Assembly (NCBI GenBank): GCA_002501285.1
Contig: DLSG01000110.1
Span: 1 to 34,547, forward strand
Origin: Christensenella sp. UBA7868
GTDB lineage: Bacteria > Bacillota > Clostridia > Christensenellales > UBA1242
Direction: 5' to 3'
Length of the DNA stretch: 34,547 bases
Below the pieces are notes generated by a model. That model was not told where the DNA came from. It was given only the letters and a program-made list of their open reading frames with translations, and searched no databases. Positions within the stretch are counted from its first letter, which is position 1. Each line of letters opens with the position of its first letter. This document shows, piece after piece, positions 9,808 to 34,547 of the stretch. Both the position numbers and the translations under genes were made by a program.

Positions 9808-10476
9808 CTAAATTTCAGTTTGCAAATCATCATAGCCTTGTTGTGAAATAACCGCAGAAATGTTGATGACAAAGTTTTTGCCACAAAGGTCTGTGTCTGC
9901 AATATCTTCTCCGACTTTCACACTATTTATAATGGTAGCCGCATTTGCTCCTTTTGCCGTCAAACCAATTTTAGTATCTGGAAGGACAATACTGCTATTT
10001 TTCTCTACGCTATAAGAACTTGAAACAAGTTGAATATAATAACTATCGTTTCCGCAAGAGTTGTCAATGTTATTTACAACGGTTGTCCCATTTTTAAACA
10101 CAACCGCAAATTGAACATTTGTAACAACAGCGTCAACGTTACCTGCATTTTTTATTTTAATAGGCAAACTAAATGTGCCTGAACTTAATGTTATTGTTTT
10201 AGTGGTAGAGCCACTTTTAACTTGAAGGCTAACCGCCCCACTTGACGAAATCGTTCCAGTAATTCCGTTTTTATCAATTTTGTAATCTGTCGTTCCGTCA
10301 TTATAATAAAATTCTAGCGAAACATAAGGATTGTTTGTTGAATTGTTATTTGAAAAAGTTCCGCTTAAATAAGCATAGGTCACGCCAAAAATTGTGCTAA
10401 TTACGCACAATGCTAAAACCAAAAACATAAAGCTATAATTTCTTTTTCCTATATTTTTATTTTTCGTTTTCAACAT
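9808..10476 (-). CDS. TasA/camelysin-like secreted protein (222 aa) with a SipW-type signal peptide, directly upstream of the giant gene
   Basis: SD GGAG lies 4-5 nt from the ATG. The N-terminus reads 'KRNYSFMFLVLALCVISTIFGVTYAYLSGTFS'. 'LPIKIKNAGNVDAVVTNVQF' is a TasA-like strand motif. Same strand as the giant gene, 79 nt from it. Confidence 0.55.
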   Translation of the reverse strand: MLKTKNKNIGKRNYSFMFLVLALCVISTIFGVTYAYLSGTFSNNNSTNNPYVSLEFYYNDGTTDYKIDKNGITGTISSSGAVSLQVKSGSTTKTITLSSGTFSLPIKIKNAGNVDAVVTNVQFAVVFKNGTTVVNNIDNSCGNDSYYIQLVSSSYSVEKNSSIVLPDTKIGLTAKGANAATIINSVKVGEDIADTDLCGKNFVINISAVISQQGYDDLQTEI

Positions 10477-20350: not shown

Positions 20351-21325
20351 ATGATTAATTTAACCGATATTTTAACTAAACCAGTTTTAAGTTTAAGTTG
20401 CACAAAATGTGAAGGGATTGTAAAGTCTGCAATATTTAATCACAATTTTAAAAGACTTAAATATCTTGTATTATTTGATGAAGAAGAAGATTTAGAAGAC
20501 AAAGTTTTGCATTACTCTTCAATTTTTTCAAACGGCGAAAATGCAATTGTCATTAAAGATGACCAATACTTAACCCCACTTTCAGCAAGTTTAAATGCAT
20601 TAGACAAGCCTTCTCCAATAAACAGTAAGGTTTACACTTTTTTAGGCAAATATTTAGGAACTATTCAAGAAGTTGTTCTATCGGATTCTTTTTTTGTTCA
20701 TTCAATAAAAACCGCAAATCAAGAAATTTTATCGACTGACATAATTTCTTTTGGTGAAAATGTTATTTTTGTTCAAGACGAAAATAAAAAAGCAAAAATA
20801 TCAAGTTTAAAAAAGAGGAAATCTAATTGCGTAAAAATTCAAGATATAAAAGTTTCAGCCGACCAAAAAGTGTATATTTTGTCACCTACAAGTAGTAGCA
20901 AAAAAAATTCAAAAAAAACTCAAACTTTGCAGCCAGATAGCACCGTTTTAAACGCAAAACCACAAAATATCAACCTAAACGAAAACATCGAAAAAGATGC
21001 CGAAGCAGAAGATATCTCAATTTCGCCAATTACGCCTACAGAAATAAATTCAAGCGAAGATGCCTCAAATTTAGACGAATTAAATAATTCTGCTCAAACT
21101 GCACCAGAAAAGCCAAAACTCGTTTATTCCCTAACCGAAGAGCCATCAAAACCAGGACTGGTTATTTCAAATTTTGAATTTTTAATTGGAAGAAAATTAG
21201 AACAAAATATATACTCTTCAAACAACGAATTAATAGCACGAAAAAACACAAAAATAACAACAGACACAATAATCAAAGCACGATTATTTAATAAAACTCG
21301 TGAACTCGTAAAATTTTCTCGTTAA
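20351..21325 (+). CDS. PRC-barrel (YlmC/YmxH-like) repeat protein with a low-complexity linker (324 aa)
   Basis: There are two segments of the type 'L..PV.....C.K.G.V......'. The C-terminus 'LIGRKLEQNIYSSNNELIARKNTKITTDTIIKA' resembles PRC-barrel proteins of Firmicutes. SD TAGGAGGA, with a TATAAT upstream. Confidence 0.4.
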   Translation: MINLTDILTKPVLSLSCTKCEGIVKSAIFNHNFKRLKYLVLFDEEEDLEDKVLHYSSIFSNGENAIVIKDDQYLTPLSASLNALDKPSPINSKVYTFLGKYLGTIQEVVLSDSFFVHSIKTANQEILSTDIISFGENVIFVQDENKKAKISSLKKRKSNCVKIQDIKVSADQKVYILSPTSSSKKNSKKTQTLQPDSTVLNAKPQNINLNENIEKDAEAEDISISPITPTEINSSEDASNLDELNNSAQTAPEKPKLVYSLTEEPSKPGLVISNFEFLIGRKLEQNIYSSNNELIARKNTKITTDTIIKARLFNKTRELVKFSR

Positions 21326-21351
21326 AAACAAACATAAAACTATAAATCAAT

Positions 21352-21383
21352 AAAAAACACTAGGAAAAATTCCTAGTGTTTTT
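21352..21383. terminator. Bidirectional Rho-independent terminator between convergent genes
   Basis: A6, stem CACTAGGA (21358-21365), loop AAAAT, stem TCCTAGTG (21371-21378), T5. Confidence 0.8.
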
Positions 21384-21387
21384 ACAA

Positions 21388-21636
21388 CTAATCAATTTCC
21401 AAATCATTAAAATCAAAAAGTTTACTATCAAAAAATTCTTGCATACTTAATCCAAGTTCACGAATAATTAATGCCATGTTTTTAAAATTTGGAGTTTGAT
21501 ATTTACAATTTAAAATATCTGTAAGCGTACTATGATACAATCCTGTTTGTTGACCAAGTTTGTATTGTGTTATTCCCTTCTCTTTTAATATTTCTCTAAC
21601 CCTTAATGCAAAAGCCTTATTAAGTTTCATTTTCAC
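21388..21636 (-). CDS. XRE-family helix-turn-helix transcriptional regulator (82 aa)
   Basis: 'LRVREILKEKGITQYKLGQQTGLYHSTLTDILN' is an HTH_3-type motif. SD AGGGGAAG. Confidence 0.8.
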   Translation of the reverse strand: MKMKLNKAFALRVREILKEKGITQYKLGQQTGLYHSTLTDILNCKYQTPNFKNMALIIRELGLSMQEFFDSKLFDFNDLEID

Positions 21637-21736
21637 TTCCCCTATATAGTGTTTTCACTACATACATATTACTTTACATATACGGAAAAACTATTTAAGG
21701 AAAAACGGACTTTTTTGTAATATTTGAATTTTTTTA

Positions 21737-21745
21737 TGCTATAAT
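21737..21745 (+). promoter_or_regulatory. Extended -10 promoter (TGcTATAAT) for the SLOG/DUF1273 gene
   Basis: TG at 21737-21738 and TATAAT at 21740-21745, followed about 27 nt later by SD AAAGGAGA and the ATG at 21788. Confidence 0.5.
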
Positions 21746-21787
21746 AGGCATGGAAAACCCGAAACAGTATAAAAAGGAGAATAACAA

Positions 21788-22357
21788 ATGAGAATTAATG
21801 AAAAAAAACTATTAAATCAATCCAAACAAAAAATTAGCAAAATTATTAACATATTAAAATCTAAAACCTGTTGTTTTACTGGTCACAGACCACAAAATTT
21901 ACCTTGGGGCGAGAACGAAGAGGATTTTAGATGCCAATTAATGAAAATTCATTTAAAAGACGAAATTATCAAATCTATCAATTATGGTTATGTTTATTTT
22001 ATTTCTGGCATGGCTCTGGGTTTTGATATCATTGCCGCTGAAACCATTTTACAACTCAAAAAGGATTTTCCTCAAATCAAACTTATTGCCGCACTCCCTT
22101 GCAAAGATCAGTATAAGTTATGGAAAAATTATCAGATTGAAAGATATCAAGAAATACTTTCTAAATGTGATAGTATTCGCTGTTTATATGGAACATATAA
22201 TAACAAATGTATGCTAGAAAGAAATATGTATATGCTAAACAATTCTTCACAAGTAATTAGTCTTTATAATGGTAAAGGTGGCGGAACTCTTTACACTTTA
22301 AAAAAAGCAAAAGATTTGGATTTAAAAATAATATTAATAAAATGTAATTTAATTTGA
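21788..22357 (+). CDS. SLOG-superfamily DUF1273 (YpsA-like) protein (189 aa)
   Basis: 'CCFTGHRPQNLPWG', 'FISGMALGFDIIAAE', 'LIAALPC', 'ERNMYMLNNS'. TGA stop at 22355. Confidence 0.7.
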   Translation: MRINEKKLLNQSKQKISKIINILKSKTCCFTGHRPQNLPWGENEEDFRCQLMKIHLKDEIIKSINYGYVYFISGMALGFDIIAAETILQLKKDFPQIKLIAALPCKDQYKLWKNYQIERYQEILSKCDSIRCLYGTYNNKCMLERNMYMLNNSSQVISLYNGKGGGTLYTLKKAKDLDLKIILIKCNLI

Positions 22358-22375
22358 TTAAAATTTTTTAACTAT

Positions 22376-22415
22376 AAAAAAGAGCACATTTTAGAAAATA
22401 AAATGTGCTCTTTTT
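22376..22415. terminator. Strong bidirectional terminator closing both the SLOG gene and the phage-like late/lysis operon
   Basis: A5, 12-bp stem AGAGCACATTTT (22381-22392), loop AGAAAAT, stem AAAATGTGCTCT (22400-22411), T-run. Confidence 0.85.
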
Positions 22416-22441
22416 ATTAATTTAATTTTATCTTCAAATTT

Positions 22442-22768
22442 TTAATCCAAATTTTCAGGTAAAACATCTTCTATGCTTTCTTTTTCAGTTTTTGATTCTT
22501 TAGTAGTGTTTTGATCATCTTCCTCTTTTGCTTCATTTTTGTTTTCTTTGGAAAATTCTTCTAAATCTTCTTTTGTTTTAATATCTTTGTCTGTTTTATC
22601 TTTATCAACAACACCAATTGTAACCATAAGTCCAATCAATGCCACCGAAATTGATATTACGGCTTCAATATTCAAATTTATTTTGAAAACATCCATTAAA
22701 ACTTCAAGTAAAACAACAACACTTGCCAAAACGGTCATCAAAAACTTATAATTCAAAAATTTTTTCAT
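22442..22768 (-). CDS. Phage holin, phi LC3/holin_4_1-like (108 aa) with an acidic C-terminal tail
   Basis: Two TM segments 'FLMTVLASVVVLLEVLMDVF' and 'AVISISVALIGLMVTIGVVDKDKT' fit the ...a.l.lL..lGiv.D.t pattern of this holin family. It is the last gene of the operon. Confidence 0.55.
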   Translation of the reverse strand: MKKFLNYKFLMTVLASVVVLLEVLMDVFKINLNIEAVISISVALIGLMVTIGVVDKDKTDKDIKTKEDLEEFSKENKNEAKEEDDQNTTKESKTEKESIEDVLPENLD

Positions 22769-22779
22769 AATTTTATCCT

Positions 22780-23019
22780 TTAAACCACTTTGGTTTTATT
22801 TTTTGCTCTAATTTTAGAATTTTCAATGTCCTCTTTAATTTCTTCAACATTTTTTTCAATATTTTCAACAGCATCTAAATGCCTATTCAAACTTTCAATC
22901 GTCTGAATATATTTTTTTTCACGCTTACTGCTGTCTTTCAATTGAAATATTAAAAGACCTAAAAACAACACCGCAAAAAGTCCATTTTGTATGGCCAAAT
23001 TAACTATTTGTTCCCACAT
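22780..23019 (-). CDS. BhlA/UviB-family holin-like protein (79 aa)
   Basis: 'NGLFAVLFLGLLIFQLKDSSKREKKYIQTIESLNRHL' aligns by eye with B. licheniformis BhlA 'QGPFAVLFCWLLFYVMKTSKERESKLYNQIDSQNEVL'. Confidence 0.7.
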   Translation of the reverse strand: MWEQIVNLAIQNGLFAVLFLGLLIFQLKDSSKREKKYIQTIESLNRHLDAVENIEKNVEEIKEDIENSKIRAKNKTKVV

Positions 23020-23045
23020 AAAACACTCTTTTTAAATATTGTAAG

Positions 23046-23273
23046 TTACAAGTTTAAAGTTTTAATTTTTTTAATATCCAATGTTTCGTATGCTTCTTGT
23101 TTTTCTTTTTCAAGTTTTTCGCTATCTTCTTTTTCCGAAAAATTACATTCAAAACTTTTTAAAATTTTTTCTAAATCGTCTTTCATAAACATTCTCTCTT
23201 TTTCAAAAGTTTTATAAAATTTAATTTCAAGTTCGTTTTTAACTTTTTCTTTACTTATTAAATCCATATTCAA
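23046..23273 (-). CDS. Small acidic coiled-coil protein (75 aa), a possible tail plug/needle or assembly factor
   Basis: K/E-rich heptad-like sequence. Overlaps the end of the 524-aa gene by 23 nt. Its function is inferred from position only. Confidence 0.3.
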   Translation of the reverse strand: MNMDLISKEKVKNELEIKFYKTFEKERMFMKDDLEKILKSFECNFSEKEDSEKLEKEKQEAYETLDIKKIKTLNL

Positions 23274-24825
23274 TTAAATCTATGCTCAATTTCAAATTTG
23301 TGATATACGCCTTATCAATTGTGCTTTTAATTTTTATACCAATTTGTTTGCCCTTTAAGTTTACCCTTATTCGATTTAACGTATCTTTCCCTTTAAGGCT
23401 AAAACTTTTGCTTTCGTTTTCAGTAAAAATAGTAATTTCAGCATCATATTTTGAAAGAATAGTAAAATCTCTAACAAATTTAATTTTATTAGAATATCCA
23501 AGGTCACTTAAAGGAGAAATCCATTCTTTAATAAGTGGTTGGTCAAAAAATTTCCCGTTACTATTAAGTTCCAAAACTCTTTGAGTTTCAACAGAATTTA
23601 AAAGGATTGCAATTTTGTCCATCTTGTTTAATTTTATAGAACACAAACAAGCAATATCAACGCCTCTTAAAATTTCGTATTCATTTGTGCTTGCATTTAA
23701 AATAACCAAAGCATTATTTTTATAACTTGTCTGATTTTCACAACCAATAATGTTGTCATCATCAAAATTAAGTCTGCACGCTAAATAATATTTCCCCGAA
23801 TGAAAAACTGCTTTTGCAAAATCATTATTTTGATTTTTAAGCATTTCGTTTACGCCCAAATTTAAAACCTTACTGGTTACACCATTAAAACTGCAAAGTC
23901 CGTCTTTTGTAAGCATAATCATTTTATCCGAACAAATACAAACTGTGTTTTCATAAATCCTGCTTCCCGACAAACTTAAATGAATAATGTCCAAATTAGA
24001 TTTATTTTCATAGCAAATTATTTTAGTTATTCCATAATCACGAATAGCATAAACATAGTCTAAAAACGAAACAACCTTGTTAATTTTGCCTCTATCGTCA
24101 TTCATCTCAAAAACATTGTTTAAAACATGGGTAATAAACTCCCCAGTTTCTTCGTCAATAATTTCATAAGTTTCAGTGTAACTAGGAAGCCAAGTTGTGA
24201 AATTTGTATCGGCATGATAATACAAAACATTTCTTTCGCCATAACCACTACCGAACAATTTACCCTTGTTTTCACACATACTATTTAGTTGCGGAAAACT
24301 CTCCATTTTTGTTGGATTTCCAAGCCCAGCGAATTTATACATTCCAAGAGTTTCCGATCCAAAAATGGTGTAATCTTTACCATCTTTTTTAATGTTATAA
24401 CTAAAAGTAGGTGGACTGTCGAATGTGTCAGTTACATAATCAAAAATATACGGAAATTCACAAATAATTCTGCTAAAATAAATTCGTTTATCTGCCCCAT
24501 AAAACAATAACTTATCCGTTCTTCCACCATTATCGGCTTCATACATTTTATAAAACCACATAGTTTTAAAGTCCACCCAATCAACATTAGGGGGCTGAAT
24601 CATCGGTGCCAAATCATCATTTACATAATTAGGGCACATTAGATTACTAAAACCATAACCTTCGGTCAAAACGCCTTTTCCATAAGCAAAATTATAAACA
24701 GCAACGCAGTAATTAGGGTCAAGAACATTTTCTTCTTTGTCAAAATTAAGTCCCTTTGAAAAGTCGTTAATTTTAACAACAATTCTTTCGGTTTTAGGTT
24801 TGCTATCACTTTTTTTAACAAACAT
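23251..24825 (-). CDS. Phage structural protein (524 aa), a candidate tail hub/nozzle with a beta-propeller-like sequence
   Basis: I moved the start to the ATG at 24825. SD GAAGGTGG lies 3 nt upstream, and the ATG overlaps the upstream stop as TAATG. The track start at 24879 would add 'MCYAGKKKYCYAKKKVAI' inside the upstream gene. 'INDFSKGLNFDKEENVL' and the repeated G-x-hydrophobic strand pattern are tail-hub-like. The gene sits after the adaptor-size gene. Confidence 0.45.
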   Translation of the reverse strand: MFVKKSDSKPKTERIVVKINDFSKGLNFDKEENVLDPNYCVAVYNFAYGKGVLTEGYGFSNLMCPNYVNDDLAPMIQPPNVDWVDFKTMWFYKMYEADNGGRTDKLLFYGADKRIYFSRIICEFPYIFDYVTDTFDSPPTFSYNIKKDGKDYTIFGSETLGMYKFAGLGNPTKMESFPQLNSMCENKGKLFGSGYGERNVLYYHADTNFTTWLPSYTETYEIIDEETGEFITHVLNNVFEMNDDRGKINKVVSFLDYVYAIRDYGITKIICYENKSNLDIIHLSLSGSRIYENTVCICSDKMIMLTKDGLCSFNGVTSKVLNLGVNEMLKNQNNDFAKAVFHSGKYYLACRLNFDDDNIIGCENQTSYKNNALVILNASTNEYEILRGVDIACLCSIKLNKMDKIAILLNSVETQRVLELNSNGKFFDQPLIKEWISPLSDLGYSNKIKFVRDFTILSKYDAEITIFTENESKSFSLKGKDTLNRIRVNLKGKQIGIKIKSTIDKAYITNLKLSIDLIEYGFNK

Positions 24826-25430
24826 TATAGCCACCTTCTTTTTGGCATAACAATATTTTTTCTTGCCCGCATAGCACATTCTAAACTTTCTTCAAATTTA
24901 GATTTGTAAACTCCACTTTGGTCGTATTCCCCCGAAACATAGCAATATTCTTTATTAAGTCCAAGAGCCAAAACTCTATCCGTCAATTTCCCATTAAAAT
25001 CAGAAACTTCACTATTCAAAGTTGCAAACTCAGGTTTATAGCAATAAACTATTCTATAATTCCCGTCTTTTACATACAAAACATTGTCGTAAATTTCACA
25101 CTTTACTTCAATTCCAAATTTATTTTCAAGCCTGCAAAGTTTATAAAAATCTTTATCTAATTTAGATAAACTAAAACTTCCGCCACTAACTTCAATATTT
25201 TCTACTATTGCCAAAGGAATATAATCAGTTGCAATTTCCTTATAAACAAGATTAAAGCATCTGGTTAAAAGTTCAAGCGTTTTTTCTTCACTCGACTTAA
25301 CTGTCCCTTCGGTTATTTCATTATATTCTTTTTCTATGTCAAAAGTTTCATCATAAATTTTACTTCCGTCCAAAAGTTCATCAAGTCCCAGCATAGTTGA
25401 CGATAATTTCACAATATCTCTAACTTTCAC
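24825..25430 (-). CDS. Phage structural protein (about 201 aa), a candidate head-to-tail adaptor
   Basis: The likely start is the GTG at 25430, preceded by GGAGGA with a 7-nt spacer. The track start, GTG at 25445, is itself part of that SD. In position and size it is analogous to P22 gp4 and T7 gp11. Confidence 0.4.
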   Translation of the reverse strand: MKVRDIVKLSSTMLGLDELLDGSKIYDETFDIEKEYNEITEGTVKSSEEKTLELLTRCFNLVYKEIATDYIPLAIVENIEVSGGSFSLSKLDKDFYKLCRLENKFGIEVKCEIYDNVLYVKDGNYRIVYCYKPEFATLNSEVSDFNGKLTDRVLALGLNKEYCYVSGEYDQSGVYKSKFEESLECAMRARKNIVMPKRRWL

Positions 25431-25431
25431 T

Positions 25432-25698
25432 TTAATTTCCTCCACTTAATTTGTCATTAAATTTATCAATTTCATCAAATATTTCATCAGCGTTTTCAAT
25501 TTTAGTTTTGTTAATTAAATTAATAATCCTGTAATCTAGCGTATCATACGGACACACAAGTTCCAAGGTTAAATTAACTCCTCTTTTAAAATAAATTTCA
25601 AATCTGTGTTTAACAATATTTCTAAAAACTCTGTAACAAGGATTAATTTCTTTAATCTTTCTTACAATATCTAATAAATCGTTTTCAATTTCGTTCAT
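25432..25698 (-). CDS. Small phage protein (88 aa), function unknown
   Basis: SD TGGAG. Lies between the capsid and adaptor-size genes. Confidence 0.5.
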   Translation of the reverse strand: MNEIENDLLDIVRKIKEINPCYRVFRNIVKHRFEIYFKRGVNLTLELVCPYDTLDYRIINLINKTKIENADEIFDEIDKFNDKLSGGN

Positions 25699-25717
25699 TT
25701 TAACTCCATTATTAGTT

Positions 25718-25744
25718 AAGGCTGAAAAATAAAATTTCAGCCTT
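25718..25744 (-). promoter_or_regulatory. 10-bp stem-loop immediately after the major capsid gene, without a U-tract
   Basis: AAGGCTGAAA (25718-25727), loop AATAAAA, TTTCAGCCTT (25735-25744). It lies between the capsid stop at 25768 and the next start at 25698. Confidence 0.6.
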
Positions 25745-25767
25745 CCTAATAAATATTTTAGTGTAAA

Positions 25768-26934
25768 CTATTTAGTAATTCCGCTAATTTTTGCTTGACC
25801 ACAAGGTTTAGAGCAAATTAAATCAGCATATTTAACAAGAGTAGCAGTATAAGCAGGATAACCAGGTTTTTGACGAATTATTTTTCCGCCTTCGTCTTCA
25901 AGCCATCTCCAATCACATAGTTGATGTAGTTCAAAATCTTTTGTAGAAAGCAAATACATAGTTCCATCAGCAACAAATCTATCATTAACAACAGGAATAC
26001 CGTTATAAGAAAGTGCTTTAAATCCTCCTTGTAAATCCATAACATCAATGTTACTTCTGCAAGCAGTTAATAATTTTTGATAAATTCTTCTAACATCGTT
26101 AGAACAAGTAATATAATCAACAACACTTCCGCCAATTTCATCAATATCGTCAATACAATTTTGCATTAAGTCTTCTGTAAGTTTTCCATCCGTTGCAGTT
26201 TTCTTAACAGGGCTCATCCAACTATAATCTGCTTTTGTTACGCCATAAAGAGAAGTGATAGAATCATCAAAAATTGCCCCAAGACCAGTAATTTCTTGAT
26301 TTAAACTATTTTGCATAGCAAGATAATAAGTATCATTTCCCATAGTGATTGAATTAGATTCACTTAAATAAACCTTTTTATTTGCTCTGTCTATTTTTGT
26401 TATTCTTGCAGTTAAACTAGCGGCAGAGTTTCCAGTTTTAAATAGTTGAACCATTTGTCCTTCCATTAAATTTTTAACGCTACCAACTGTAACATTATTT
26501 GCCGCAATTGCACTAACATCAGCAAGTTTACCAGTGCCATCACCAAATAGCATTCTAGAAAAGTTGAAGTTAGATGCTTTAATTAAGCCTTCCATTTCTG
26601 CATTTAATAAATTTACAAAAGCGCCTGCATTGCTTTCACTTGCTCTTATTGCTTTGTCGGAAATTTCAATTACGCCATACAAATTTTTTAAACTTGTAAC
26701 AAATTTAACATAATTGTTTCCCGCACTTTCTGGAAGGGCGCCAGTTTCAGTGCCAGCGCCAACACCACCATTAACACCAAAAGTTGTTAATTTAATAATT
26801 TCTTTGCCCCAAACATCATTGCTTGTTTGTTTAATTCTTGCTAAAAGCGGATTAGCCTTAATATTTAACGCTTCGCTAACAACATCAAGATAGGCATCTT
26901 TTAATGCATTTTGAGCATTATCAATAGTAACCAT
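25768..26934 (-). CDS. Major capsid protein, HK97-fold-like (388 aa)
   Basis: It follows the scaffold gene. Its size and sequence are typical of the Phage_capsid family ('LYGVIEISDKAIRAS', 'GIPVVNDRFV'). SD AAGGAGA. Confidence 0.75.
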   Translation of the reverse strand: MVTIDNAQNALKDAYLDVVSEALNIKANPLLARIKQTSNDVWGKEIIKLTTFGVNGGVGAGTETGALPESAGNNYVKFVTSLKNLYGVIEISDKAIRASESNAGAFVNLLNAEMEGLIKASNFNFSRMLFGDGTGKLADVSAIAANNVTVGSVKNLMEGQMVQLFKTGNSAASLTARITKIDRANKKVYLSESNSITMGNDTYYLAMQNSLNQEITGLGAIFDDSITSLYGVTKADYSWMSPVKKTATDGKLTEDLMQNCIDDIDEIGGSVVDYITCSNDVRRIYQKLLTACRSNIDVMDLQGGFKALSYNGIPVVNDRFVADGTMYLLSTKDFELHQLCDWRWLEDEGGKIIRQKPGYPAYTATLVKYADLICSKPCGQAKISGITK

Positions 26935-26943
26935 AATTTCTCC

Positions 26944-27600
26944 TTATTTTTTCAAAATGTGCATTGCAAATTTTCCCGCCTCGGATAAATCTTTTGGCTT
27001 AAATTTGGGGCTAGAAACAACATTTGTTCCCACCCCGCCAGAAATTAATTGCACATTTTTTCCATTTTTCAAATTTAACAAATAATCTTCAATAATTTTG
27101 TTTTTAATTTTTTCATTGTTATAAACAAACTCGTTCAAAAATTCTTCGTCATTTGCTAATTGTTCTTTGGGCACAAAATTTTGTTTAAGCACCCTAGAGT
27201 ACGCAAGTTCCAAAGCATCATCTTTTTTAGCCAAATCTTCATCAGAAATTAAGATTTCAGCAATTTGTTTAACATAATTTTTGGCATTTTCATTTTGGGC
27301 TAAAAACTCGCCAGTTTTTTTAAGCCAATCTTCTCTTTCATATTGTGGCAGAACAGTTTCAGATTTTTCTTTATCTTCTTCTGTTTTATTGCCTGAAAGT
27401 GCACTCAACTTTTGACACTTTTTAGTAAATTCTTTTTCCAAATTTTCATAAGCCTTCAAAAGTTCTTCTGTGCTTTTAAATTTTGAAGAGCCAGTAAGCG
27501 ATAAATCGTCCGTTTCGTTTTTTTCTAATTTTTCATCAAGCGTTCCTGCTTTAAGGTTGACATTTTCGCTGTCTAGTTGTTCTCCAATGTTTTCTATCAT
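26944..27600 (-). CDS. Phage scaffolding protein (218 aa)
   Basis: Acidic, K/E-rich and helical. Lies between portal and capsid. SD AGGAGA overlaps the portal stop. Confidence 0.65.
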   Translation of the reverse strand: MIENIGEQLDSENVNLKAGTLDEKLEKNETDDLSLTGSSKFKSTEELLKAYENLEKEFTKKCQKLSALSGNKTEEDKEKSETVLPQYEREDWLKKTGEFLAQNENAKNYVKQIAEILISDEDLAKKDDALELAYSRVLKQNFVPKEQLANDEEFLNEFVYNNEKIKNKIIEDYLLNLKNGKNVQLISGGVGTNVVSSPKFKPKDLSEAGKFAMHILKK

Positions 27601-27611
27601 AATAAAATCTC

Positions 27612-29489
27612 CTAATTCAAAATTTCTTGTTGTTTTTCTTTTCTTAACAACTCTTTATGTTTTTCAATATGGCAAAGCATAACTTCTTTAATTTGTGGCA
27701 TAACTTTTTCCGCTTTCGCATATTCTTCGCCAAGCATAAAAGCGATATGTTCATCAATGTGAAGTTCATGATTGTCAATAACCAAAGGCTCGTCAATTTT
27801 AGCATTTTTAACCGCACTCAAATTTTCTTTTCCCGCCTTTTTCATGTGAAGTTCTTCAAGGTCATATTGATTATCCCACATACCAAATCCCAGCATTTCA
27901 AGAGTTTTTGCTTTAATTCTCGTTGTCAATTTGCCGTCCTCGTTAGAAAGCAAACCTTTTTCTAAAAGTTCAAAAATTAAACTGCGTTTTTGCGCTTTCG
28001 TTTCCCCAATTTCATTTTCAGTTTGAAACACAATATCATCACTAGAAATGTCACTATTTCCGAAATAAAACATTTCTATGCTTCCGTCTTTACCAATAAC
28101 TTTTGCTATTCTAACAGAATTTACAAATTGTTTATAAAGTCTTAAAATATTTGCAGCAATACATTTAATTGCAAACTTAATTTGGTCAGACGAAACATTT
28201 AATCTATTACTATCTTGTTCAAGTAAAAGTTCAAGAGTAACACCCGATAAATTGTTCTTATTAATGTTTTTAATCATTAAATCCGAAACCCCACTAATCG
28301 AGGTAAATTCTTCAAGCAACTTATCTTCTTCTTCCTTAAAATCAGAAGGGATTGTCCCATTATCCATAATTTTAGGAGCGTTACTTCCTTGCCTATACAC
28401 CAAAACCTTTCCTGGGCACAAACCTTCCTCTTCAAGATTTTCGCAGTCCACAGACCCATCTTCAACAGTCAAAATTCCCATCGAAAGCCTGTTTAAATAT
28501 TCGTGTTTACGATTTTTAACAGCGTTATAACTTCTTTGAACAGGAATAATTCTTTCAATTATGCTTGTTCCAAAAAAACAATTTGGTTTTTTAATTGAAA
28601 CTTGCTTAATAAATGGAAAACCTCTTTTACCATCTTCTCGGTTTACAAAAGGTAAAATTCCGTCATACACAAGCGTTTTCCCTGCAACAATAATTAACCT
28701 TCCGTCAGGATATTCGCTTGTTGGAGCAACATATTTTTCAATAACAAGAACTTGGTCATGTTTAATCATGCTTTTCATCTTGCTTTTTTCCACCATGCTT
28801 GTTTCTACATCATCTAAACTAAACACATCAATATCGCTTCCCAGTTCTTCCACGCCCCAAATTTTCTTAACCACATCTTGATGATAACTTTTTGCATGAA
28901 TAATACTCATACAATCATCAACATTTTCATAACTTGTGCTGTCTGGAAAAATTTCAAACGGCGAAACAACTTCTACATCAACATCACCTTCAAAAACATC
29001 TTCGCCGTCAACCACGCCAACTTTCTTGCCTTTTTGGCTGTTCCAAAACACTTTGTAAATTCCTGTTCCACAAATTTCACTAAAATGAGTGCAACTAGCA
29101 ATCTTGTCACTAATATTCAATTTGTGATAAACACAGTTAATCAAGTTTTTCGACACCTTCGCAGTAGAAATATCTTCTTCGCTATTGGTCGCTGGAACAA
29201 CACTCATTGCTGGTCTAATTTGTCCAAGTTTAGCAATTCTACTTTCAACAACTGGCGCAATATGGTTAAAAACTTCTCTTTCTTGCCAAAAATATTGTTT
29301 ATCAAAATCTTCAACATCGCTTCTAACAACCATACAATACTGGTCGCCATACAAAAAGTTCATATTTAAAATCCACTGGGCTTCAATCGGTTTTCGTTCA
29401 AGTTGTCTTGCTTTAAAATCTTCAATAGTTTCTTTAACCAAGTTTTCTTTATACTTATCAACAACTTTTTTAGAAATCTTATTTTTCAT
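27612..29489 (-). CDS. Phage portal protein (625 aa)
   Basis: Assigned by size and position between the terminase and scaffold genes. SD AGGAGA. Confidence 0.7.
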   Translation of the reverse strand: MKNKISKKVVDKYKENLVKETIEDFKARQLERKPIEAQWILNMNFLYGDQYCMVVRSDVEDFDKQYFWQEREVFNHIAPVVESRIAKLGQIRPAMSVVPATNSEEDISTAKVSKNLINCVYHKLNISDKIASCTHFSEICGTGIYKVFWNSQKGKKVGVVDGEDVFEGDVDVEVVSPFEIFPDSTSYENVDDCMSIIHAKSYHQDVVKKIWGVEELGSDIDVFSLDDVETSMVEKSKMKSMIKHDQVLVIEKYVAPTSEYPDGRLIIVAGKTLVYDGILPFVNREDGKRGFPFIKQVSIKKPNCFFGTSIIERIIPVQRSYNAVKNRKHEYLNRLSMGILTVEDGSVDCENLEEEGLCPGKVLVYRQGSNAPKIMDNGTIPSDFKEEEDKLLEEFTSISGVSDLMIKNINKNNLSGVTLELLLEQDSNRLNVSSDQIKFAIKCIAANILRLYKQFVNSVRIAKVIGKDGSIEMFYFGNSDISSDDIVFQTENEIGETKAQKRSLIFELLEKGLLSNEDGKLTTRIKAKTLEMLGFGMWDNQYDLEELHMKKAGKENLSAVKNAKIDEPLVIDNHELHIDEHIAFMLGEEYAKAEKVMPQIKEVMLCHIEKHKELLRKEKQQEILN

Positions 29490-29497
29490 ATTTTCTC

Positions 29498-29800
29498 CTA
29501 AATTTTATTTTCTTCTTTAAGTTTTTCAATCAATTTATCTCTTTCAATTAAAAGTTCTTCATCGGTCATTTCAGTCAGTTCACTTTCTTTAAAGCCTGCT
29601 TGCATTTCAAGCAAAACTTTAACCGCACTAATATCTGGTGGAATATTTTTTTTCGTAACTTTACGTTTCGTTAAAACCATCTTGCCCTCTTCTTCTTTGC
29701 AAAATTCTTCCGTCACTTCCTTGTTTAAATATCCAAGAGCCCGTTTTATTAACGCTTTATTAAGTTTTTTGTTATATTCTTCTTTTTCCATATCTTTCAT
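29498..29800 (-). CDS. Small phage protein (100 aa) with a terminase-small-subunit-like C-terminal motif
   Basis: 'KRKVTKKNIPPDISAVKVLLEMQ' resembles the K..lPPd..A..f.L motif I recall from some TerS proteins. Overlaps the TerL 3' end by 29 nt. Confidence 0.3.
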   Translation of the reverse strand: MKDMEKEEYNKKLNKALIKRALGYLNKEVTEEFCKEEEGKMVLTKRKVTKKNIPPDISAVKVLLEMQAGFKESELTEMTDEELLIERDKLIEKLKEENKI

Positions 29801-31211
29801 TTTTTGCCTTTCTAAATAATCTTTCTTTATCTTTTTGAATACTGTTTTTTGTGGTTTTTAAATGGTTTTCTGGGTTACTCATAACATAATATCGAAGTTC
29901 GTCCATAGCATGGTCATCTTTTTTAATCGGGCAATCACCATTTCCCCAAAAATAGCCTTTAATTTCTCTAATCATATTTACGCAGTTTTTAAAAATGTAA
30001 AGTTTTCTTTCGCCCATGCTATTACAAATTAAACTTTTAACCCTGTTTATCCCACTAAATAAATCTTTATTAACATTCGTATTTACACAAATTCCATAAT
30101 CATAAAACAGTTGAGCCACACTTTTTTGACACGCAAGTGTCGTTTGATTTGCCGCACTATCAATTAATGCTGAAAGTTTTCCATTTCCAAGTCTTGGCCA
30201 GTTTAACCTATCCGCAATTTCCAAAATTTTTTTACTATGATATTCCATATCCTTGTCCGCCTGATAATGTTCGTCAATAACATAAATATTTCCGTCAAAG
30301 TCAACCGCATAAAAATGACAAGAAAGCGGATTTCTAAAACCTGGGTCAATACTTATATTGTCATACCATTCTTTTGGACAATCAAATGGTTCAATAACAT
30401 TAATTCTTTCATCAAAATTATTGTAAACAAGCCCGCCACTAAAACTAAATTTCCCGTCACATCTACTTTCAAGTTCGTCACTACTCATAGTCTTTTTTAA
30501 TGCATCAATTTCTTTCGAATCTAAAAACGGATTATCTTTCCAACTTAAAAATTCGCACCAAACTTCATCATCTTGATTTTCATTCAAATAAATTGTGTTA
30601 TAAACCCAAGTCAGCCCTTTAAGCGGTGTCATAGTCCCAAAAATTTCTCCACACTTATCAATAACTCTCATCTTACATTCAATATAAATATCTTGCGGAG
30701 GTTCTTCATCAAACCACACAAAATCTAAACTTGTTCCCTGAAATTTTTCTCTTCCCTGGTCACAACTTTTAAAACCAATCGTGCTAATCCCACCAAACAC
30801 ATTTTTAATTAAAATCTTATCAATAACGCCACATTCCAAACTATCTTTTCTGCCACTTATCATCACAATATCTTCAATCCAGTCGGGGTTTAAATAATGC
30901 AAAATTTTGCTTTGAGCAACATCTCTTTGAACTTGCGTAGATAAACTAACAACCCAGCCCTTAACATTCGGTTTATTTTGCTTATATGGGTGAATACCCC
31001 TTGCCAAATAAATTGCTTCGACGGCTCCACATTCGGTTTTGCCCGTTCGGTTCCCGCCAAACACCCACCTGTTTTTTTTGTTACATTTATGAAACAACAC
31101 TTGTTTTTCATGAATTTTTTCACCCGTGTTATACGAAAAAATTTTATTATTTTCTTTTCGCCTTAAAATTTCCTTGTCAATCAAATTAAGTTTTTCTATA
31201 AGTTCTTTCAT
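29772..31211 (-). CDS. terL: Terminase large subunit (479 aa)
   Basis: Walker A 'FGGNRTGKTE', Walker B-like 'SLDFVWFDEEP', and a C-terminal nuclease-like region 'DDHAMDELRY'. Confidence 0.85.
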   Translation of the reverse strand: MKELIEKLNLIDKEILRRKENNKIFSYNTGEKIHEKQVLFHKCNKKNRWVFGGNRTGKTECGAVEAIYLARGIHPYKQNKPNVKGWVVSLSTQVQRDVAQSKILHYLNPDWIEDIVMISGRKDSLECGVIDKILIKNVFGGISTIGFKSCDQGREKFQGTSLDFVWFDEEPPQDIYIECKMRVIDKCGEIFGTMTPLKGLTWVYNTIYLNENQDDEVWCEFLSWKDNPFLDSKEIDALKKTMSSDELESRCDGKFSFSGGLVYNNFDERINVIEPFDCPKEWYDNISIDPGFRNPLSCHFYAVDFDGNIYVIDEHYQADKDMEYHSKKILEIADRLNWPRLGNGKLSALIDSAANQTTLACQKSVAQLFYDYGICVNTNVNKDLFSGINRVKSLICNSMGERKLYIFKNCVNMIREIKGYFWGNGDCPIKKDDHAMDELRYYVMSNPENHLKTTKNSIQKDKERLFRKAKNERYGKRRI

Positions 31212-31312
31212 ATCTTCCCCACAGTTCTTAATGTTAGCCTTAAATTTTTGGCTATAAAAATTAAAATTGTATAAAATTATATTTATCGCAATATTATTAT
31301 TAAGAGGATAAT

Positions 31313-32044
31313 TTGAAAAAACATCTTATAGTTTTATGTTTAATACTTTATGTTATAGTTGGCGGAATTTTGCTTTCAAAATCCGAAAACCAACTATTTT
31401 TAGCCAGTGCAAATCAAGACAAACCCATTTATGCTAAAATTTCAGTTATAAACACGCCTCTTTTAAAAACTCCTTCAAACATTGAAGATTATTCAAATGT
31501 ATATTTTTTGCTTGAAGAAACCTATTTTGTCAAAATTCTTTCAAAAATTAATTCAAATTTTTATTATGTCGATTACAATGATATTCACGGTTATGTAAAT
31601 TCGGCAAAACTAACACTTGTCAACGAGCAAATTGAAAACCCGTTCTTAACAAACATAAAATTTAAAATTTCAAAAGAATGTTATTTGTTTTCCGAACCTA
31701 AAAATCTTGAAAAAAATCAAATTCAAAAACTTTCTCTCGACACAAATGTCACTTTTATAGGGAAAATTTTTTCAGACGAAATCTTCAAAAACAGCGGAAA
31801 CGAATGGTATTACAGCAAAGTTTCCACTCCTAGTGGCGACATTTACGGTTATATTCACAGTGCAAACACTTCGAATTTATCTCCAATAGATAAAAATAAC
31901 GAATACTCAACAACTCTCATTTCTTCCGAGCAAAACTCTCTTTTAAATTTAAGCGTAAAAACTCAATCAATAGTAATAACAATAATAAGCATTCCAATAA
32001 TTTTTTTACTTTTTATATTTTTAAAAGGTTTTAAAAAAGTTTAA
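31313..32044 (+). CDS. Membrane protein with two SH3b-like domains, an N-terminal signal anchor and a C-terminal TM helix (243 aa), TTG start
   Basis: SD AAGAGGA 4 nt upstream of the TTG at 31313. 'FYYVDYNDIHGYVNSAKL' and 'EWYYSKVSTPSGDIYGYIHSANT' are SH3_3-type motifs. C-terminal TM 'IVITIISIPIIFLLFIFL'. Confidence 0.55.
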   Translation: MKKHLIVLCLILYVIVGGILLSKSENQLFLASANQDKPIYAKISVINTPLLKTPSNIEDYSNVYFLLEETYFVKILSKINSNFYYVDYNDIHGYVNSAKLTLVNEQIENPFLTNIKFKISKECYLFSEPKNLEKNQIQKLSLDTNVTFIGKIFSDEIFKNSGNEWYYSKVSTPSGDIYGYIHSANTSNLSPIDKNNEYSTTLISSEQNSLLNLSVKTQSIVITIISIPIIFLLFIFLKGFKKV

Positions 32045-32595
32045 ACATAGCCAAATTTTTTGTTTACTGCCAAATTATGAACTGCCAAACTAAAAATACT
32101 TGAATTAGAAATATCTGGTTCAGCCTTTTTAGAAATTTCTTTTTCATAATACTCATTAAATAAAAACAAAATCCATTTTTCGTTTTTAATAAGTTTAATT
32201 ATTTTGTTTTCGTCATATCCAAAGGTTAAAAGATTAGAAGCAAATCCACAAATTGCCTCATTGTATTTTCTATAATAAGTACGTCTTTTTAAATCAAGCG
32301 CCTTCATTACCATATCGTGCGACATTTTGTCCACAAACCTAAGTGTTAAAATTTTACATTCTGTATCATCAAGCGAAAGTAACATTTTTTCAATTAAAAC
32401 CTTAATATTAACAAGCGTTACTTTCCTATCTGTAATATTAATAATTCTCTGCATTTCTCTAAAAGTGTTGTCAAACCCATAAAAATTACAACTATTTAAT
32501 GCAAAATTCTCCACAATTTTGTCAATTTCATTTGTTAAACTAAACAAACAATCATAAACATTAAGCAATGTTTTGCTCCAAACTTTTAATCTCAT
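32041..32595 (-). CDS. ArpU / sigma-70 region-4-like phage late-gene transcriptional regulator (184 aa from the ATG at 32595)
   Basis: 'ECKILTLRFVDKMSHDMVMKALDLKRRTYYRKYNEAICGFASNL' is patterned like ArpU and sigma region 4. SD AGGAGGG lies 3 nt upstream of the ATG at 32595. The track GTG at 32640 coincides with the predicted transcription start. Confidence 0.5.
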   Translation of the reverse strand: MRLKVWSKTLLNVYDCLFSLTNEIDKIVENFALNSCNFYGFDNTFREMQRIINITDRKVTLVNIKVLIEKMLLSLDDTECKILTLRFVDKMSHDMVMKALDLKRRTYYRKYNEAICGFASNLLTFGYDENKIIKLIKNEKWILFLFNEYYEKEISKKAEPDISNSSIFSLAVHNLAVNKKFGYV

Positions 32596-32646
32596 AAACC
32601 CTCCTAATAGTGCGATTAAACAGGCATTTTTTTGCCTCACACAACA

Positions 32647-32676
32647 ATTATAAGGTATGAAATTTTACAAAGTCAA
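32647..32676 (-). promoter_or_regulatory. Near-consensus sigma-A-type promoter for the regulator gene
   Basis: On the minus strand, TTGACT (32676-32671), an 18-nt spacer, then TATAAT (32652-32647). The predicted transcription start is near 32640. Confidence 0.65.
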
Positions 32677-32691
32677 AGTTTAGTGCCAAAA

Positions 32692-32721
32692 TTTTGTAAA
32701 AAATTACATTTTTTTACAAAA
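32692..32721. promoter_or_regulatory. Perfect 12-bp inverted repeat, TTTTGTAAAAAA-N6-TTTTTTACAAAA, a candidate operator
   Basis: Arms at 32692-32703 and 32710-32721. A third copy of the core TTTTACAAA lies at 32663-32671 and overlaps the -35/spacer of the promoter. Confidence 0.4.
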
Positions 32722-32925
32722 ACCCACATAAATCGACATTTCAGTATATTTAAAGTATAAAAAACCCTTTTGTTCAACACTTTCTAAAATAATTTACGCA
32801 GTATCGCATTACATTACTTTTCTAGCAAAGAAATTAATCATATAATTTTAAAAACAATAAAACTCGTTTATAAAATTAATAATTTTGTCAAAATTTAAAA
32901 ATATATATACATTTATTAAACTTTT

Positions 32926-32934
32926 TGGTATAAT
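32926..32934 (+). promoter_or_regulatory. Extended -10 promoter (TGgTATAAT) 6 nt upstream of the ATG at 32941, suggesting a leaderless mRNA
   Basis: Reads ...CTTTTTGGTATAATAAATGTATG. There is no SD. Confidence 0.5.
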
Positions 32935-32940
32935 AAATGT

Positions 32941-34547
32941 ATGAAAAAATTTTTATTATCACTTTTCATATTGCTTCAAGTATTGTTTATTCCAATTCCT
33001 TTAAACAATACTATTTATGCTGAAAATCAGATGCTTTCAGATTTTTCATCAAATAATTATTCAAATTTTACAATTTTATCTCAAACCGAATTTTATTGCG
33101 TAGATAATCAAACAAATCAAGTTGTACACTATAAAAACGGAAACACAACATCTTTTGGAAAATATGGCGAAGAAAGCGGTGAATTTGCACAAATTAAAAA
33201 ATTATTAATATTAAAAAACGGAGAGATTGTTGTTTTCGACAATCTAAACAAACTTCACTTTTTTGATAATAACTCAAATTTTCTTTCAACCATTACATCA
33301 ACTAAAATTGACAATTCCCTAACCCCACTAGGACAAGTGTATGATATTCAATCCGACATCTATTCAAATGTATATTTACTAGACTCAACCAATAACTATA
33401 TTTTAAAAGCGTCAAGTGACAGTAAAAATTTTAGCGTTGTAAGTTCAACCACGCTAAACAGCAATACAAAATTCACGATTCTAAACAATTCTCAAAATTT
33501 TGTTATTTTAGACGATTGCAAACTTCAAAGTGGTGAAAATCAAATTTCACTAGAAATTGCCCCAAAAAGTTTGTTTACTGATGCTAAAAATTACATCTAT
33601 CTTGTTTATGATGAAAAAATAGAAAAATATAATCAAAACTTAACATTAATAACCAAACTCGAAATTAATTTAGGAGAAAATTATTCTATAAACCTAGAAA
33701 ATGGTGAAATCTATTATTTTCAAGATGCAGAAATTAAAACTCTTAAAGATTTTGCTTCAAATCTAGAAGATTACACTCCCCCAATAGATGTCAAAAACAA
33801 AACTCCATTATCTGAAAATATTGTAATTTTAACGCCATTAAGACAAGTAAATTTACTATCAAACCCTTATTCCAGCAAAACACTTAAAGTTTTAAACACC
33901 CAAGACAAATTAATTCTACTTGCAAAAACACAAGATTTTGAAACTCAATTTTGTTATGTTATGTATCAAAATGCAAACGAAACTTTCACAGGTTTTATTG
34001 AAGAGCGTTATCTAACGACACTTGAAATACCTTTAAAAAATGAAGAAATTATTTCGGTACGAAACGATGTTCCATATTACAAATATCCAAATGCAAAAAT
34101 CGATTACAAAATTTCAAATTTCACAGAAAGCACTCTTTCTATGCTAAACGAATTTGAACTTGACGGCATAACGTATTATCAAATCAAATTAAACGATTTT
34201 GTTGTCTTTGCAAAATCTGATGATTTTATAAGTTCAGACATTTCATGGGTAAATGTTTACTTAATTACAAATGCTCAAATTGCACCATATAACAACGAGA
34301 ATGTCACCTTATATCTTGATGAAAACAAAACTGAAATTTTAACTACATTAAACACAACGCAAAATGTAAAATTACTTGAAAAGCAATCAAACGGATTATC
34401 AAAAATTCAAGTGCTTTATAGCAACGAAATTGTTTCGTGTTATGTTGAAACAAAATTTATTGTTCCAAACAACGATTTATCTTTGCCACTAACTATTGTT
34501 TTAAGTTTAATTTGCTTAATAACAATAACAGTATTACTTATTAAATT
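32941..34547 (+). CDS. Secreted protein (535 or more aa; the frame runs to the window end without an in-frame stop) with a signal peptide, a beta-propeller/NHL-like region, about three SH3b-like domains and a TM helix at the end of the window. Not in the supplied ORF track.
   Basis: I translated the frame by hand. An in-frame TAA lies upstream at 32917, the first ATG is at 32941, and no stop follows to 34547. The N-terminus is 'MKKFLLSLFILLQVLFIPIPLNNTIYA'. SH3b-like motifs include 'FCYVMYQNANETFTGFIEERYL', 'ITYYQIKLNDFVVFAKSDDF' and 'KIQVLYSNEIVSCYVETKFI'. The final residues 'LPLTIVLSLICLITITVLLIK' are hydrophobic. Confidence 0.7.
   Translation, partial: MKKFLLSLFILLQVLFIPIPLNNTIYAENQMLSDFSSNNYSNFTILSQTEFYCVDNQTNQVVHYKNGNTTSFGKYGEESGEFAQIKKLLILKNGEIVVFDNLNKLHFFDNNSNFLSTITSTKIDNSLTPLGQVYDIQSDIYSNVYLLDSTNNYILKASSDSKNFSVVSSTTLNSNTKFTILNNSQNFVILDDCKLQSGENQISLEIAPKSLFTDAKNYIYLVYDEKIEKYNQNLTLITKLEINLGENYSINLENGEIYYFQDAEIKTLKDFASNLEDYTPPIDVKNKTPLSENIVILTPLRQVNLLSNPYSSKTLKVLNTQDKLILLAKTQDFETQFCYVMYQNANETFTGFIEERYLTTLEIPLKNEEIISVRNDVPYYKYPNAKIDYKISNFTESTLSMLNEFELDGITYYQIKLNDFVVFAKSDDFISSDISWVNVYLITNAQIAPYNNENVTLYLDENKTEILTTLNTTQNVKLLEKQSNGLSKIQVLYSNEIVSCYVETKFIVPNNDLSLPLTIVLSLICLITITVLLIK

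Follow-up and report, generated by a model that had tools for sequence, protein, structure and literature searches.

Gene transfer agents (GTAs) are known from very few lineages, and the Christensenellales, in which the locus described here was found, are health-associated gut bacteria. The locus is a phage-like gene cassette of Christensenella sp. UBA7868 (contig DLSG01000110.1, positions 1 to 34,547 of the forward strand; this whole stretch of 34,547 nucleotides, low-GC DNA of about 30% GC, is called the window). The closest described system is FpGTA of Faecalibacterium prausnitzii, the first podovirus-type GTA of a gut commensal (Nat Commun 2026;17:2046, PMC12946183). FpGTA operon I is 10.5 kb long and has ten open reading frames (ORFs), with the gene order TerL (large terminase), portal, Prp-like protein, major capsid protein (MCP), a small protein annotated as unknown, adaptor and nozzle (order read from the locus tags and the function column of Supplementary Data 2). 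A second operon, located 125 kb away, contains baseplate, fibre, receptor-binding protein (RBP), holin and endolysin genes, and the particles, which measure about 40 nm, carry 8.4-8.9 kb of host DNA (PMC12946183). GTA-like packaging was also reported for Christensenellaceae (HGM11616, 4.1 and 7.1 kb reads; QANA01, 6.3 kb) and no gene cluster was assigned to this signal in that paper (PMC12946183). A literature search revealed no other paper describing such an element in Christensenellales.

Comparison of the window with related loci leads us to conclude, with high confidence, that the cassette is a head-neck-nozzle module that derives from a podovirus, has been domesticated, is passed on vertically and is kept under purifying selection. 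By analogy with FpGTA it probably makes DNA-filled particles that behave as a GTA, and would then be the Christensenellales counterpart of FpGTA. The cassette is a tightly packed, co-directional set of minus-strand genes running from 31211 down to 22442. The ORFs and coordinates of an initial annotation made from the sequence, which had described one minus-strand unit between these positions, were reproduced in the re-analysis. The operon is 8.8 kb long (10.2 kb including the regulator gene). The regulator, the gene next to it and the packaging, head and neck genes are the following.

32041..32640, minus strand: late-gene activator of the ArpU/RinA/DUF1492 type with a sigma region-4-like helix-turn-helix (HTH), from family matches
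31313..32044, plus strand: 243-aa membrane protein with SH3b-like repeats, divergent from TerL (weak SH3_3 match)
29772..31211, minus strand: TerL, large terminase (packaging ATPase and nuclease); PF03237, 1.6e-11; phrog_2, 8e-30
29498..29800, minus strand: TerS-like (small terminase-like) protein, 100 aa, 29-nt overlap with the 3' end of TerL; weak PHROG matches
27612..29489, minus strand: portal of the P22/SU10 type, 625 aa; PF16510 P22_portal, 1.5e-22; phrog_156, 3.7e-39
26944..27600, minus strand: scaffold candidate, 218 aa, from its position between portal and coat; pI 5.0
25768..26934, minus strand: major capsid protein (coat) of the HK97 type, 388 aa; NF033394 capsid_maj_Podo; phrog_14242, 5.7e-54
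25432..25698, minus strand: 88-aa virion-module protein, candidate for head completion or decoration, from its conserved position
24825..25430, minus strand: predicted head-to-tail adaptor, 201 aa (AlphaFold2 model and Foldseek)
23251..24825, minus strand: predicted tail nozzle/hub, 524 aa, beta-propeller plus C-terminal beta-sandwich (AlphaFold2 model and Foldseek)

As proposed in the initial annotation, the cassette encodes a TerL with the Walker A motif GGNRTGKTE (residues 52-60), a 625-aa portal and a 388-aa HK97-like coat, all three borne out by the family matches listed above. Walker A, Walker B (VWFDEEPP) and the nuclease motifs (DPG, DSA and DDH..D.LRYY) of TerL are at least 95% conserved in 63 species. 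The solved sequence closest to the portal is that of the phage GP4 portal (8jov_0, 1.8e-5). The coat scored 257 bits against NF033394, whose cut-off is 80, this being its sole NCBIfam match at E <= 0.01, and its mean column identity over 25 species is 67%. The 100-aa ORF, found right after TerL in 70 of 71 loci, matched phrog_309 (1.4e-6, profile positions 191-276 of 319 only) and phrog_23444 (3e-5). It had no Pfam or NCBIfam match and no DNA-binding domain was recognised in it; the ORF itself was confirmed, and its small-terminase identity is weakly indicated by the PHROG matches. For the 218-aa protein the ORF and the predicted acidity (pI 5.0, mildly acidic) were confirmed. It matched nothing in Pfam, PHROGs or NCBIfam, including no Prp or peptidase family, and an ORF of variable length (120-330 aa) is conserved at this position in 76 loci. 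Position, pI and positional conservation suggest that it is the scaffold. The 88-aa ORF lies between the coat and adaptor genes in 67 loci and has counterparts in the true phages L136 and L142 (related loci are designated by L numbers); its ratio of nonsynonymous to synonymous substitution rates (dN/dS) is 0.07-0.24, and nothing was found for it in Pfam, PHROGs or NCBIfam.

The initial annotation had suggested that the 201-aa and 524-aa proteins are adaptor and tail hub/nozzle, and the AlphaFold2 and Foldseek run that it had proposed supported both assignments. The model of the 201-aa protein (pLDDT 88.3) matched the P1 connector, KHP30, the SU10 adaptor 7z47_A (5e-5), Pa223 9nwi_A (5.5e-5, root-mean-square deviation 2.8), N4, GP4, VP1 and T7 gp11 in the PDB. 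A homologue of the adaptor (P0246) matched PF24175 SU10_adaptor at 9e-6 and 26.7 bits, the cut-off being 27. The 524-aa protein has 95 homologue clusters, every one annotated as hypothetical. Its model, built on an alignment of 50 homologue clusters, is all-beta (pLDDT 89.3, pTM 0.89) and had as top PDB match the Pa223 tail protein 9nwi_Y (E 9e-19, TM 0.68/0.70), with further matches to VP1 8zkk_O, GP4 8jov_A, SU10 7z4f_G, P22 gp10 8u10_1 and T7 gp12; the BFVD matches were uncharacterised phage proteins and proteins named 'P22 Gp10'. On the strength of these models the 201-aa protein is predicted to be a podovirus head-to-tail adaptor and the 524-aa protein a podovirus tail nozzle/hub. Profile searches of the PDB by sequence gave nothing useful for nozzle, adaptor, coat or the DUF7934 protein described below; fold comparison alone worked. 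An adaptor fold and a beta-propeller nozzle fold are encoded directly behind the head genes. The label 'podovirus' rests on neck and nozzle and not on the coat, because the nearest cultured-phage relatives of the coat are actinobacterial siphoviruses (25-29% identity).

Portal, adaptor and nozzle share their folds and their order with those of the podoviruses GP4 (Ralstonia), Pa223 (Pseudomonas), VP1 (Vibrio), SU10 (E. coli), P22 and T7 at an identity of 8-14%. Those phages, however, are autonomous and have fibres or spikes, plug or needle, ejection, replication and lysis modules, whereas no fibres, spikes or ejection/internal proteins were recognisable in the window. The coat belongs to a large family, with 3824 clusters at 50% identity (E <= 1e-3) and no fewer than 6790 at 90% identity, and distant relatives of the cassette coat occur in true phage genomes of 48-64 kb. 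L136 and L142 have structural genes with Ig domains and Hoc-like genes, L149 encodes an SU10_adaptor protein and a 2648-aa polyvalent protein, and L151 encodes Mu Gam, SSB and methylases, its packaging genes being directly preceded by a DUF1492 regulator gene. Set against them, the cassette is a stripped-down derivative of podophages of this kind. These true phages with related coats have many more genes, in line with the earlier view that an autonomous phage would need more than this gene set.

Family scans of the window ORFs revealed no integrase, replication, tube, sheath, tape-measure, fibre or endolysin families, which agrees with the list of absent functions given in the initial annotation. 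The same families were also absent from the 2.4 kb past the right end of the window, and no primase module was recognised at the locus. Direct repeats resembling att sites and flanking the cassette were AT-rich chance matches only. The absence of integration, excision and replication functions holds in 80 related loci as well. What resides in the chromosome is thus a cluster of phage-like genes for structure and packaging that lacks mobility and replication functions, as GTA clusters do.

To define the distribution, the coat was searched against one genome per GTDB species. Of the 303 relatives found, the best 80 (54-87% identity) were examined as loci. All 80 come from metagenome-assembled genomes (MAGs) of Clostridia/Christensenellales, obtained from human, chicken, rabbit, ruminant and other guts. 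The cassette is present in the same order in at least 80 species-representative Christensenellales MAGs: regulator, 243-aa gene (on the opposite strand), TerL, TerS-like gene, portal, scaffold, coat, 88-aa-like gene, adaptor and nozzle, with an extra 70-aa ORF between the TerS-like gene and the portal in many loci. Every core gene is intact as far as the contigs extend (80 loci), and TerL, portal, coat, adaptor and nozzle are on a single contig in 63 of the 80. In 29 of 51 loci the 10 kb downstream contain RNase J and an O-methyltransferase (OMT); the g274-g316-RNase J-OMT block of the window is approximately 7 kb further off, behind an inserted block that includes GltX (glutamyl-tRNA synthetase). 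Even a divergent cassette (L145), whose coat clusters apart at 50% identity, adjoins RNase J-OMT-U32; this version is minimal, consisting of nine genes, and has no regulator or 243-aa gene upstream. No presence/absence pattern of the cassette was seen in the loci examined.

When dN/dS was computed against the five closest species, values of 0.08-0.11 were obtained for TerL, 0.09-0.15 for the portal, 0.12-0.26 for the coat and 0.09-0.21 for the nozzle, compared with 0.07-0.12 for the neighbouring GltX; these values are rough because dS is saturated (about 1). Distances of the cassette proteins were correlated with those of RNase J, a host gene physically linked to the cassette (Mantel r 0.92 for TerL, 0.96 for the portal and 0.89 for the coat; p = 5e-4). 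The coat evolves more slowly than RNase J (mean distance 0.29 vs 0.41). The GC content of the cassette follows that of its flanks over a range of 28-58% (r = 0.97, n = 50). The cassette has been inherited vertically over the long term under purifying selection, as GTAs are. Of the three options that the initial annotation had left, these comparisons, which follow the test it had outlined, select the GTA-like domesticated element (conserved position, intact genes, purifying selection, co-divergence); the capsid-forming satellite was rejected on the basis of the fixed locus and the co-divergence, and the very recently decayed prophage on the basis of the intact genes and the purifying selection. 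Synteny, intactness, selection and co-divergence taken together exclude a decayed prophage and a mobile satellite and establish long-term vertical inheritance.

The cassette resembles FpGTA operon I in size and gene number (both about 10 kb with about ten genes), in its location in the chromosome of gut Clostridia, in being nearly ubiquitous in its host clade, and in the order TerL, portal, head-assembly protein, MCP, small protein, adaptor, nozzle. The TerS candidates of both lack a DNA-binding domain, both necks are of the podovirus type, and neither system has integrase or replication genes. The differences include the coat, which in FpGTA is named 'N4-gp56 family' and in the cassette belongs to NF033394 (a comparison of annotation names), and the gene between portal and coat, which encodes a Prp-like protease in FpGTA and the 218-aa scaffold candidate in the cassette. 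Holin, endolysin, fibre and RBP are encoded in the second operon of FpGTA, whereas the cassette operon ends in two holins, and the cassette has an ArpU-like regulator of its own. Moreover, FpGTA particles and their DNA were demonstrated experimentally, whereas those of the cassette are predictions from its genes. Judged from annotation names, the two systems are analogous and possibly independent domestications. The order TerL, portal, X, MCP, small protein, adaptor, nozzle, charged coiled-coil protein, which they share, would fit one ancient domestication of a podovirus in the ancestor of Christensenellales and Oscillospirales, but the differing coat family names argue against it, and we consider such a common origin rather improbable. 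If it were true, there would be a Clostridia-wide GTA lineage, a Firmicutes analogue of the lineage of RcGTA from Alphaproteobacteria, and this lineage would also supply the missing machinery for the GTA-like packaging observed across several gut families.

With RcGTA the cassette has in common that a head and packaging cluster was domesticated, is inherited vertically at the level of the order or deeper, is under purifying selection and lacks replication and integration genes. RcGTA also has a TerS without a DNA-binding domain and accessory genes located elsewhere (as summarised in PMC12946183). RcGTA is, however, siphovirus-like, with tube, tape-measure and baseplate, where the cassette has adaptor and nozzle only, and the proteins are unrelated; GTA neck proteins appeared at E of about 0.08-0.15 in the Foldseek list of the adaptor.

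The reading as a GTA is based on the kept packaging motor, the lack of a function for self-replication or excision, the holins at the end of the operon and the precedent of FpGTA. GTA particles carry near-random host DNA in pieces too short for the whole cluster, and, as circumstantial evidence, the operon (8.8-10.2 kb) exceeds the Christensenellaceae fragments of approximately 4-7 kb (PMC12946183). We infer particle production, packaging of random DNA, release by lysis and delivery to recipients from reading the genes. In the proposed mechanism the ArpU/RinA-like activator would switch on one operon, and portal, scaffold and HK97-type coat would assemble into a small procapsid. TerL and its small TerS-like partner would fill the head by headful packaging, after which a dodecameric adaptor and a hexameric nozzle would seal the portal. 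Release from a lysing subpopulation would require the two holins and a wall hydrolase, which may be encoded elsewhere or not be needed. Host DNA would be the expected cargo of the particles, as in a GTA, since functions for replication, integration and excision are missing from the locus.

Several points weigh against this reading. The dN/dS values suffer from the saturation of dS, the marker of the Mantel test is a linked host gene, all comparative loci come from MAGs, and the TerS assignment is weak. Neither a fibre, spike or receptor-binding protein nor ejection/internal proteins are recognisable in the window, and there is no endolysin at the locus. The link to the packaging reported for HGM11616 and QANA01, for which the cassette could be the machinery, is circumstantial. 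Furthermore, a charged coiled-coil protein of about 310 aa (DUF7934 in Pfam) is encoded directly behind the nozzle in 64 of the 80 loci (for example L016, 14576-15538, and L027, 13405-14337) and also in the true 48-kb phage L136 (19828-20808). This protein is therefore assigned to the virion module and is a candidate needle, plug or internal protein. The clade of the window (L003-L010 and L013) is without it and has only a poorly conserved 73-aa ORF at the end of the nozzle gene. The loss of DUF7934 makes the delivery competence of the window clade doubtful.

An alternative explanation sees the cassette as a domesticated particle maker kept for a function other than gene transfer; capsid and nozzle would be built and DNA perhaps packaged, but not delivered. 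Candidates for such a function are programmed lysis with release of extracellular DNA, a killer or decoy of the PBSX type, and supply of capsids against or by infecting phages. The evidence of conservation and selection fits this explanation as well as it fits a GTA, and the missing fibre/RBP, ejection and endolysin genes and the loss of DUF7934 in the window clade speak in its favour. PBSX of Bacillus subtilis, likewise a chromosomally fixed, defective phage-like element of Firmicutes, packages host DNA and is released by lysis, and it does not deliver the DNA (PMC12946183). PBSX differs from the cassette in being a 28-kb myovirus-like killer particle with a full contractile tail. Against this explanation, a nozzle without fibres or sheath offers no obvious killing mechanism. 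Constraint on TerL, the TerS-like protein and the portal matches that on the coat, which indicates that DNA packaging itself is under selection. In addition, the absence of fibre and lysis genes from the cassette is weak evidence because other GTAs hold such genes at distant loci, as FpGTA does in operon II. We regard a function other than gene transfer as unlikely, though deserving serious consideration.

A capsid-forming satellite, for which a helper phage would supply tail fibres, replication and lysis, is very improbable and largely refuted. Like the capsid-forming phage-inducible chromosomal islands (cf-PICIs), the cassette has a compact head and packaging gene set with its own terminase and lacks several virion and lysis functions. 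But cf-PICIs are mobile (integrase, replication, att) and helper-dependent, whereas the cassette has no integrase, replication/primase module or att repeats, sits at the same locus with the same neighbours in at least 80 species without a presence/absence pattern in the loci examined, co-diverges with RNase J, tracks the GC content of its host and has an adaptor and nozzle of its own. A recently decayed, functionless prophage remnant, which the incomplete gene set and the relaxed constraint on the 73-aa ORF (dN/dS 0.45-0.65) might suggest, can be dismissed as refuted by core genes intact in at least 63 full loci at coat identities of 54-87%, dN/dS of about 0.1, conserved catalytic motifs and a coat more conserved than RNase J.

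Should the cassette prove active, capsid-mediated exchange of DNA pieces of approximately 4-9 kb would be a built-in, order-wide trait of Christensenellales, and short-tailed phages would have been domesticated as GTAs at least twice in Clostridia, or once very early. The cassette, carried intact by hundreds of species of the order, also provides a concrete candidate gene cluster for the orphan Christensenellaceae packaging signal (PMC12946183). A practical consequence concerns viral databases: IMG/VR holds 62 contigs with the cassette coat (L083-L144), and most of these 'viral' contigs are short host fragments with the domesticated cassette rather than virus genomes, so that many IMG/VR entries with cassette fragments represent host loci. 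Contigs of 15.8-16.6 kb with a cassette of the L145 type recur in many samples (L145 and eight more). A complete mini-phage was considered for them and rejected, as the contigs contain host DNA (cation efflux, BPL, RNase J, U32); the recurrent length of approximately 15.8-16.0 kb points to conserved assembly breakpoints at both ends.

The control elements of the cassette and the genes behind the nozzle are as follows.

32647..32676, minus strand: sigma-70-like promoter TTGACT-18-TATAAT upstream of the regulator gene (consensus match only)
31263..31276, minus strand: conserved TTTTATACAATTTT element, -10-like, in the 100 nt that separate the 243-aa gene from TerL
23046..23267, minus strand: charged helical protein, 73 aa, poorly conserved and restricted to the window clade
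22780..23019, minus strand: BhlA-family holin; PF10960, 1.6e-13; phrog_2429
22442..22768, minus strand: second holin-like membrane protein, 108 aa, with an acidic tail; PHROG holin families
22377..22415, both strands: bidirectional intrinsic-terminator hairpin at the end of the operon, 17-pair stem with A and T runs on either side

The sigma/ArpU-like regulator that had been placed at the head of the cassette was corroborated by matches to PF07374 DUF1492 (weak), phrog_248 transcriptional activator (6.5e-9) and TIGR01637 phage_arpU (5.6e-6, under the family cut-off). The gene caller put its start at 32595 (184 aa). A homologue is found upstream of TerL in 54 of the 55 loci with enough upstream DNA, and the protein is probably the ancestral late-gene activator of the phage. 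The near-consensus promoter ahead of it (32676-32647) was found again as the best sigma-70-like match within 21300-33000 (11 of 12 positions), while promoter-like sites as a class were not enriched over shuffles in the AT-rich cassette region. The TTTTATACAATTTT element is kept in the window, L003, L004, L005 and L007, and the neighbouring intergenic DNA varies; this conservation makes it a candidate for the operon promoter. At the other end of the cassette the terminator hairpin was likewise recovered, with a stem of 17 pairs.

A homologue of the 243-aa gene occupies the same place in the same orientation in 53 of 55 loci. Its sequence diverges quickly: identity within the window clade is about 50%, and dN/dS is 0.18-0.37. 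Two envelope proteins with SH3b-like repeats are encoded one on either side of the regulator (31313-32044 and 32941-34547) and are syntenic with the cassette in most species; both are fast-evolving, with 41-54% identity within the window clade and dN/dS of 0.18-0.44. They could be parts of the system (receptor, sensor or anti-activator) or mere neighbours.

The ORF behind the nozzle gene, described as 75 aa in the initial annotation, is present, with its start called at an ATG that gives 73 aa. Its length varies between 50 and 86 aa in the window clade, it is absent in L006, and nothing was found for it in Pfam, PHROGs or NCBIfam. It was considered as a remnant of DUF7934 and rejected (hhalign probability 1%). 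DUF7934, by description, recalls the abundant FpGTA particle protein annotated as 'TolA' (RCH50844.1). In L089 (7988-11597), L091 (11968-16419) and L095 two large genes (791-805 aa and 406-683 aa) without a Pfam match lie right behind the nozzle gene. Large post-nozzle genes of this kind (790-805 aa and 400-680 aa in some lineages), wanting in the window clade, are possible fibre or spike genes.

The BhlA holin was confirmed by PF10960. It is well conserved (dN/dS 0.07-0.12), and a holin of this type ends the cassette in 18 of the 80 loci and is also found in L145 and L153. The second protein, earlier called an LC3-type holin, is holin-like according to phrog_297, phrog_962 and phrog_13404, all of them holin families (1.5e-5 to 1.8e-3); the LC3 label was not reproduced, and there was no NCBIfam match.

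The left flank had been described as housekeeping-like. This applies to GltX and RNase J further left, but not to the immediate neighbours, a pair of genes encoding YpsA (SLOG, PF06908) and an XRE-type HTH protein at 21388-22357, directly behind the cassette terminator. L003 and L004, the closest relatives, lack the pair at the corresponding place. In L085 and L121 a YpsA/HTH pair is accompanied by two Dcm methyltransferases and McrBC and is inserted behind the coat gene; in L121 (12181-19467; likewise in L085) the coat gene and two small ORFs are followed by a YpsA-HTH-Dcm-Dcm-McrB-McrC island, and no adaptor or nozzle gene was found within the retrieved DNA. Either the cassette is split by the island in these two loci, or the neck genes were lost in the lineage. 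The YpsA/HTH pair thus seems to belong to a mobile defence island with the cassette locus as its target.

Three of the loci, L029, L033 and L051 (JAMPEJ01, JAMPAB01 and JAMPHX01), come from MAGs named 'Corallococcus sp.' and have the cassette on contigs of 47-49% GC, in L033 with the RNase J-OMT synteny. Almost certainly the label is wrong or the bins are contaminated. At the far left of the window a surface protein of 3123 aa (357-9728) contains 17 DUF285 repeat stretches (PF03382, E 2e-284) and, by eye, a TasA/SipW-like signal peptide; it is preceded by a 222-aa protein (9808-10476) with a similar signal peptide.

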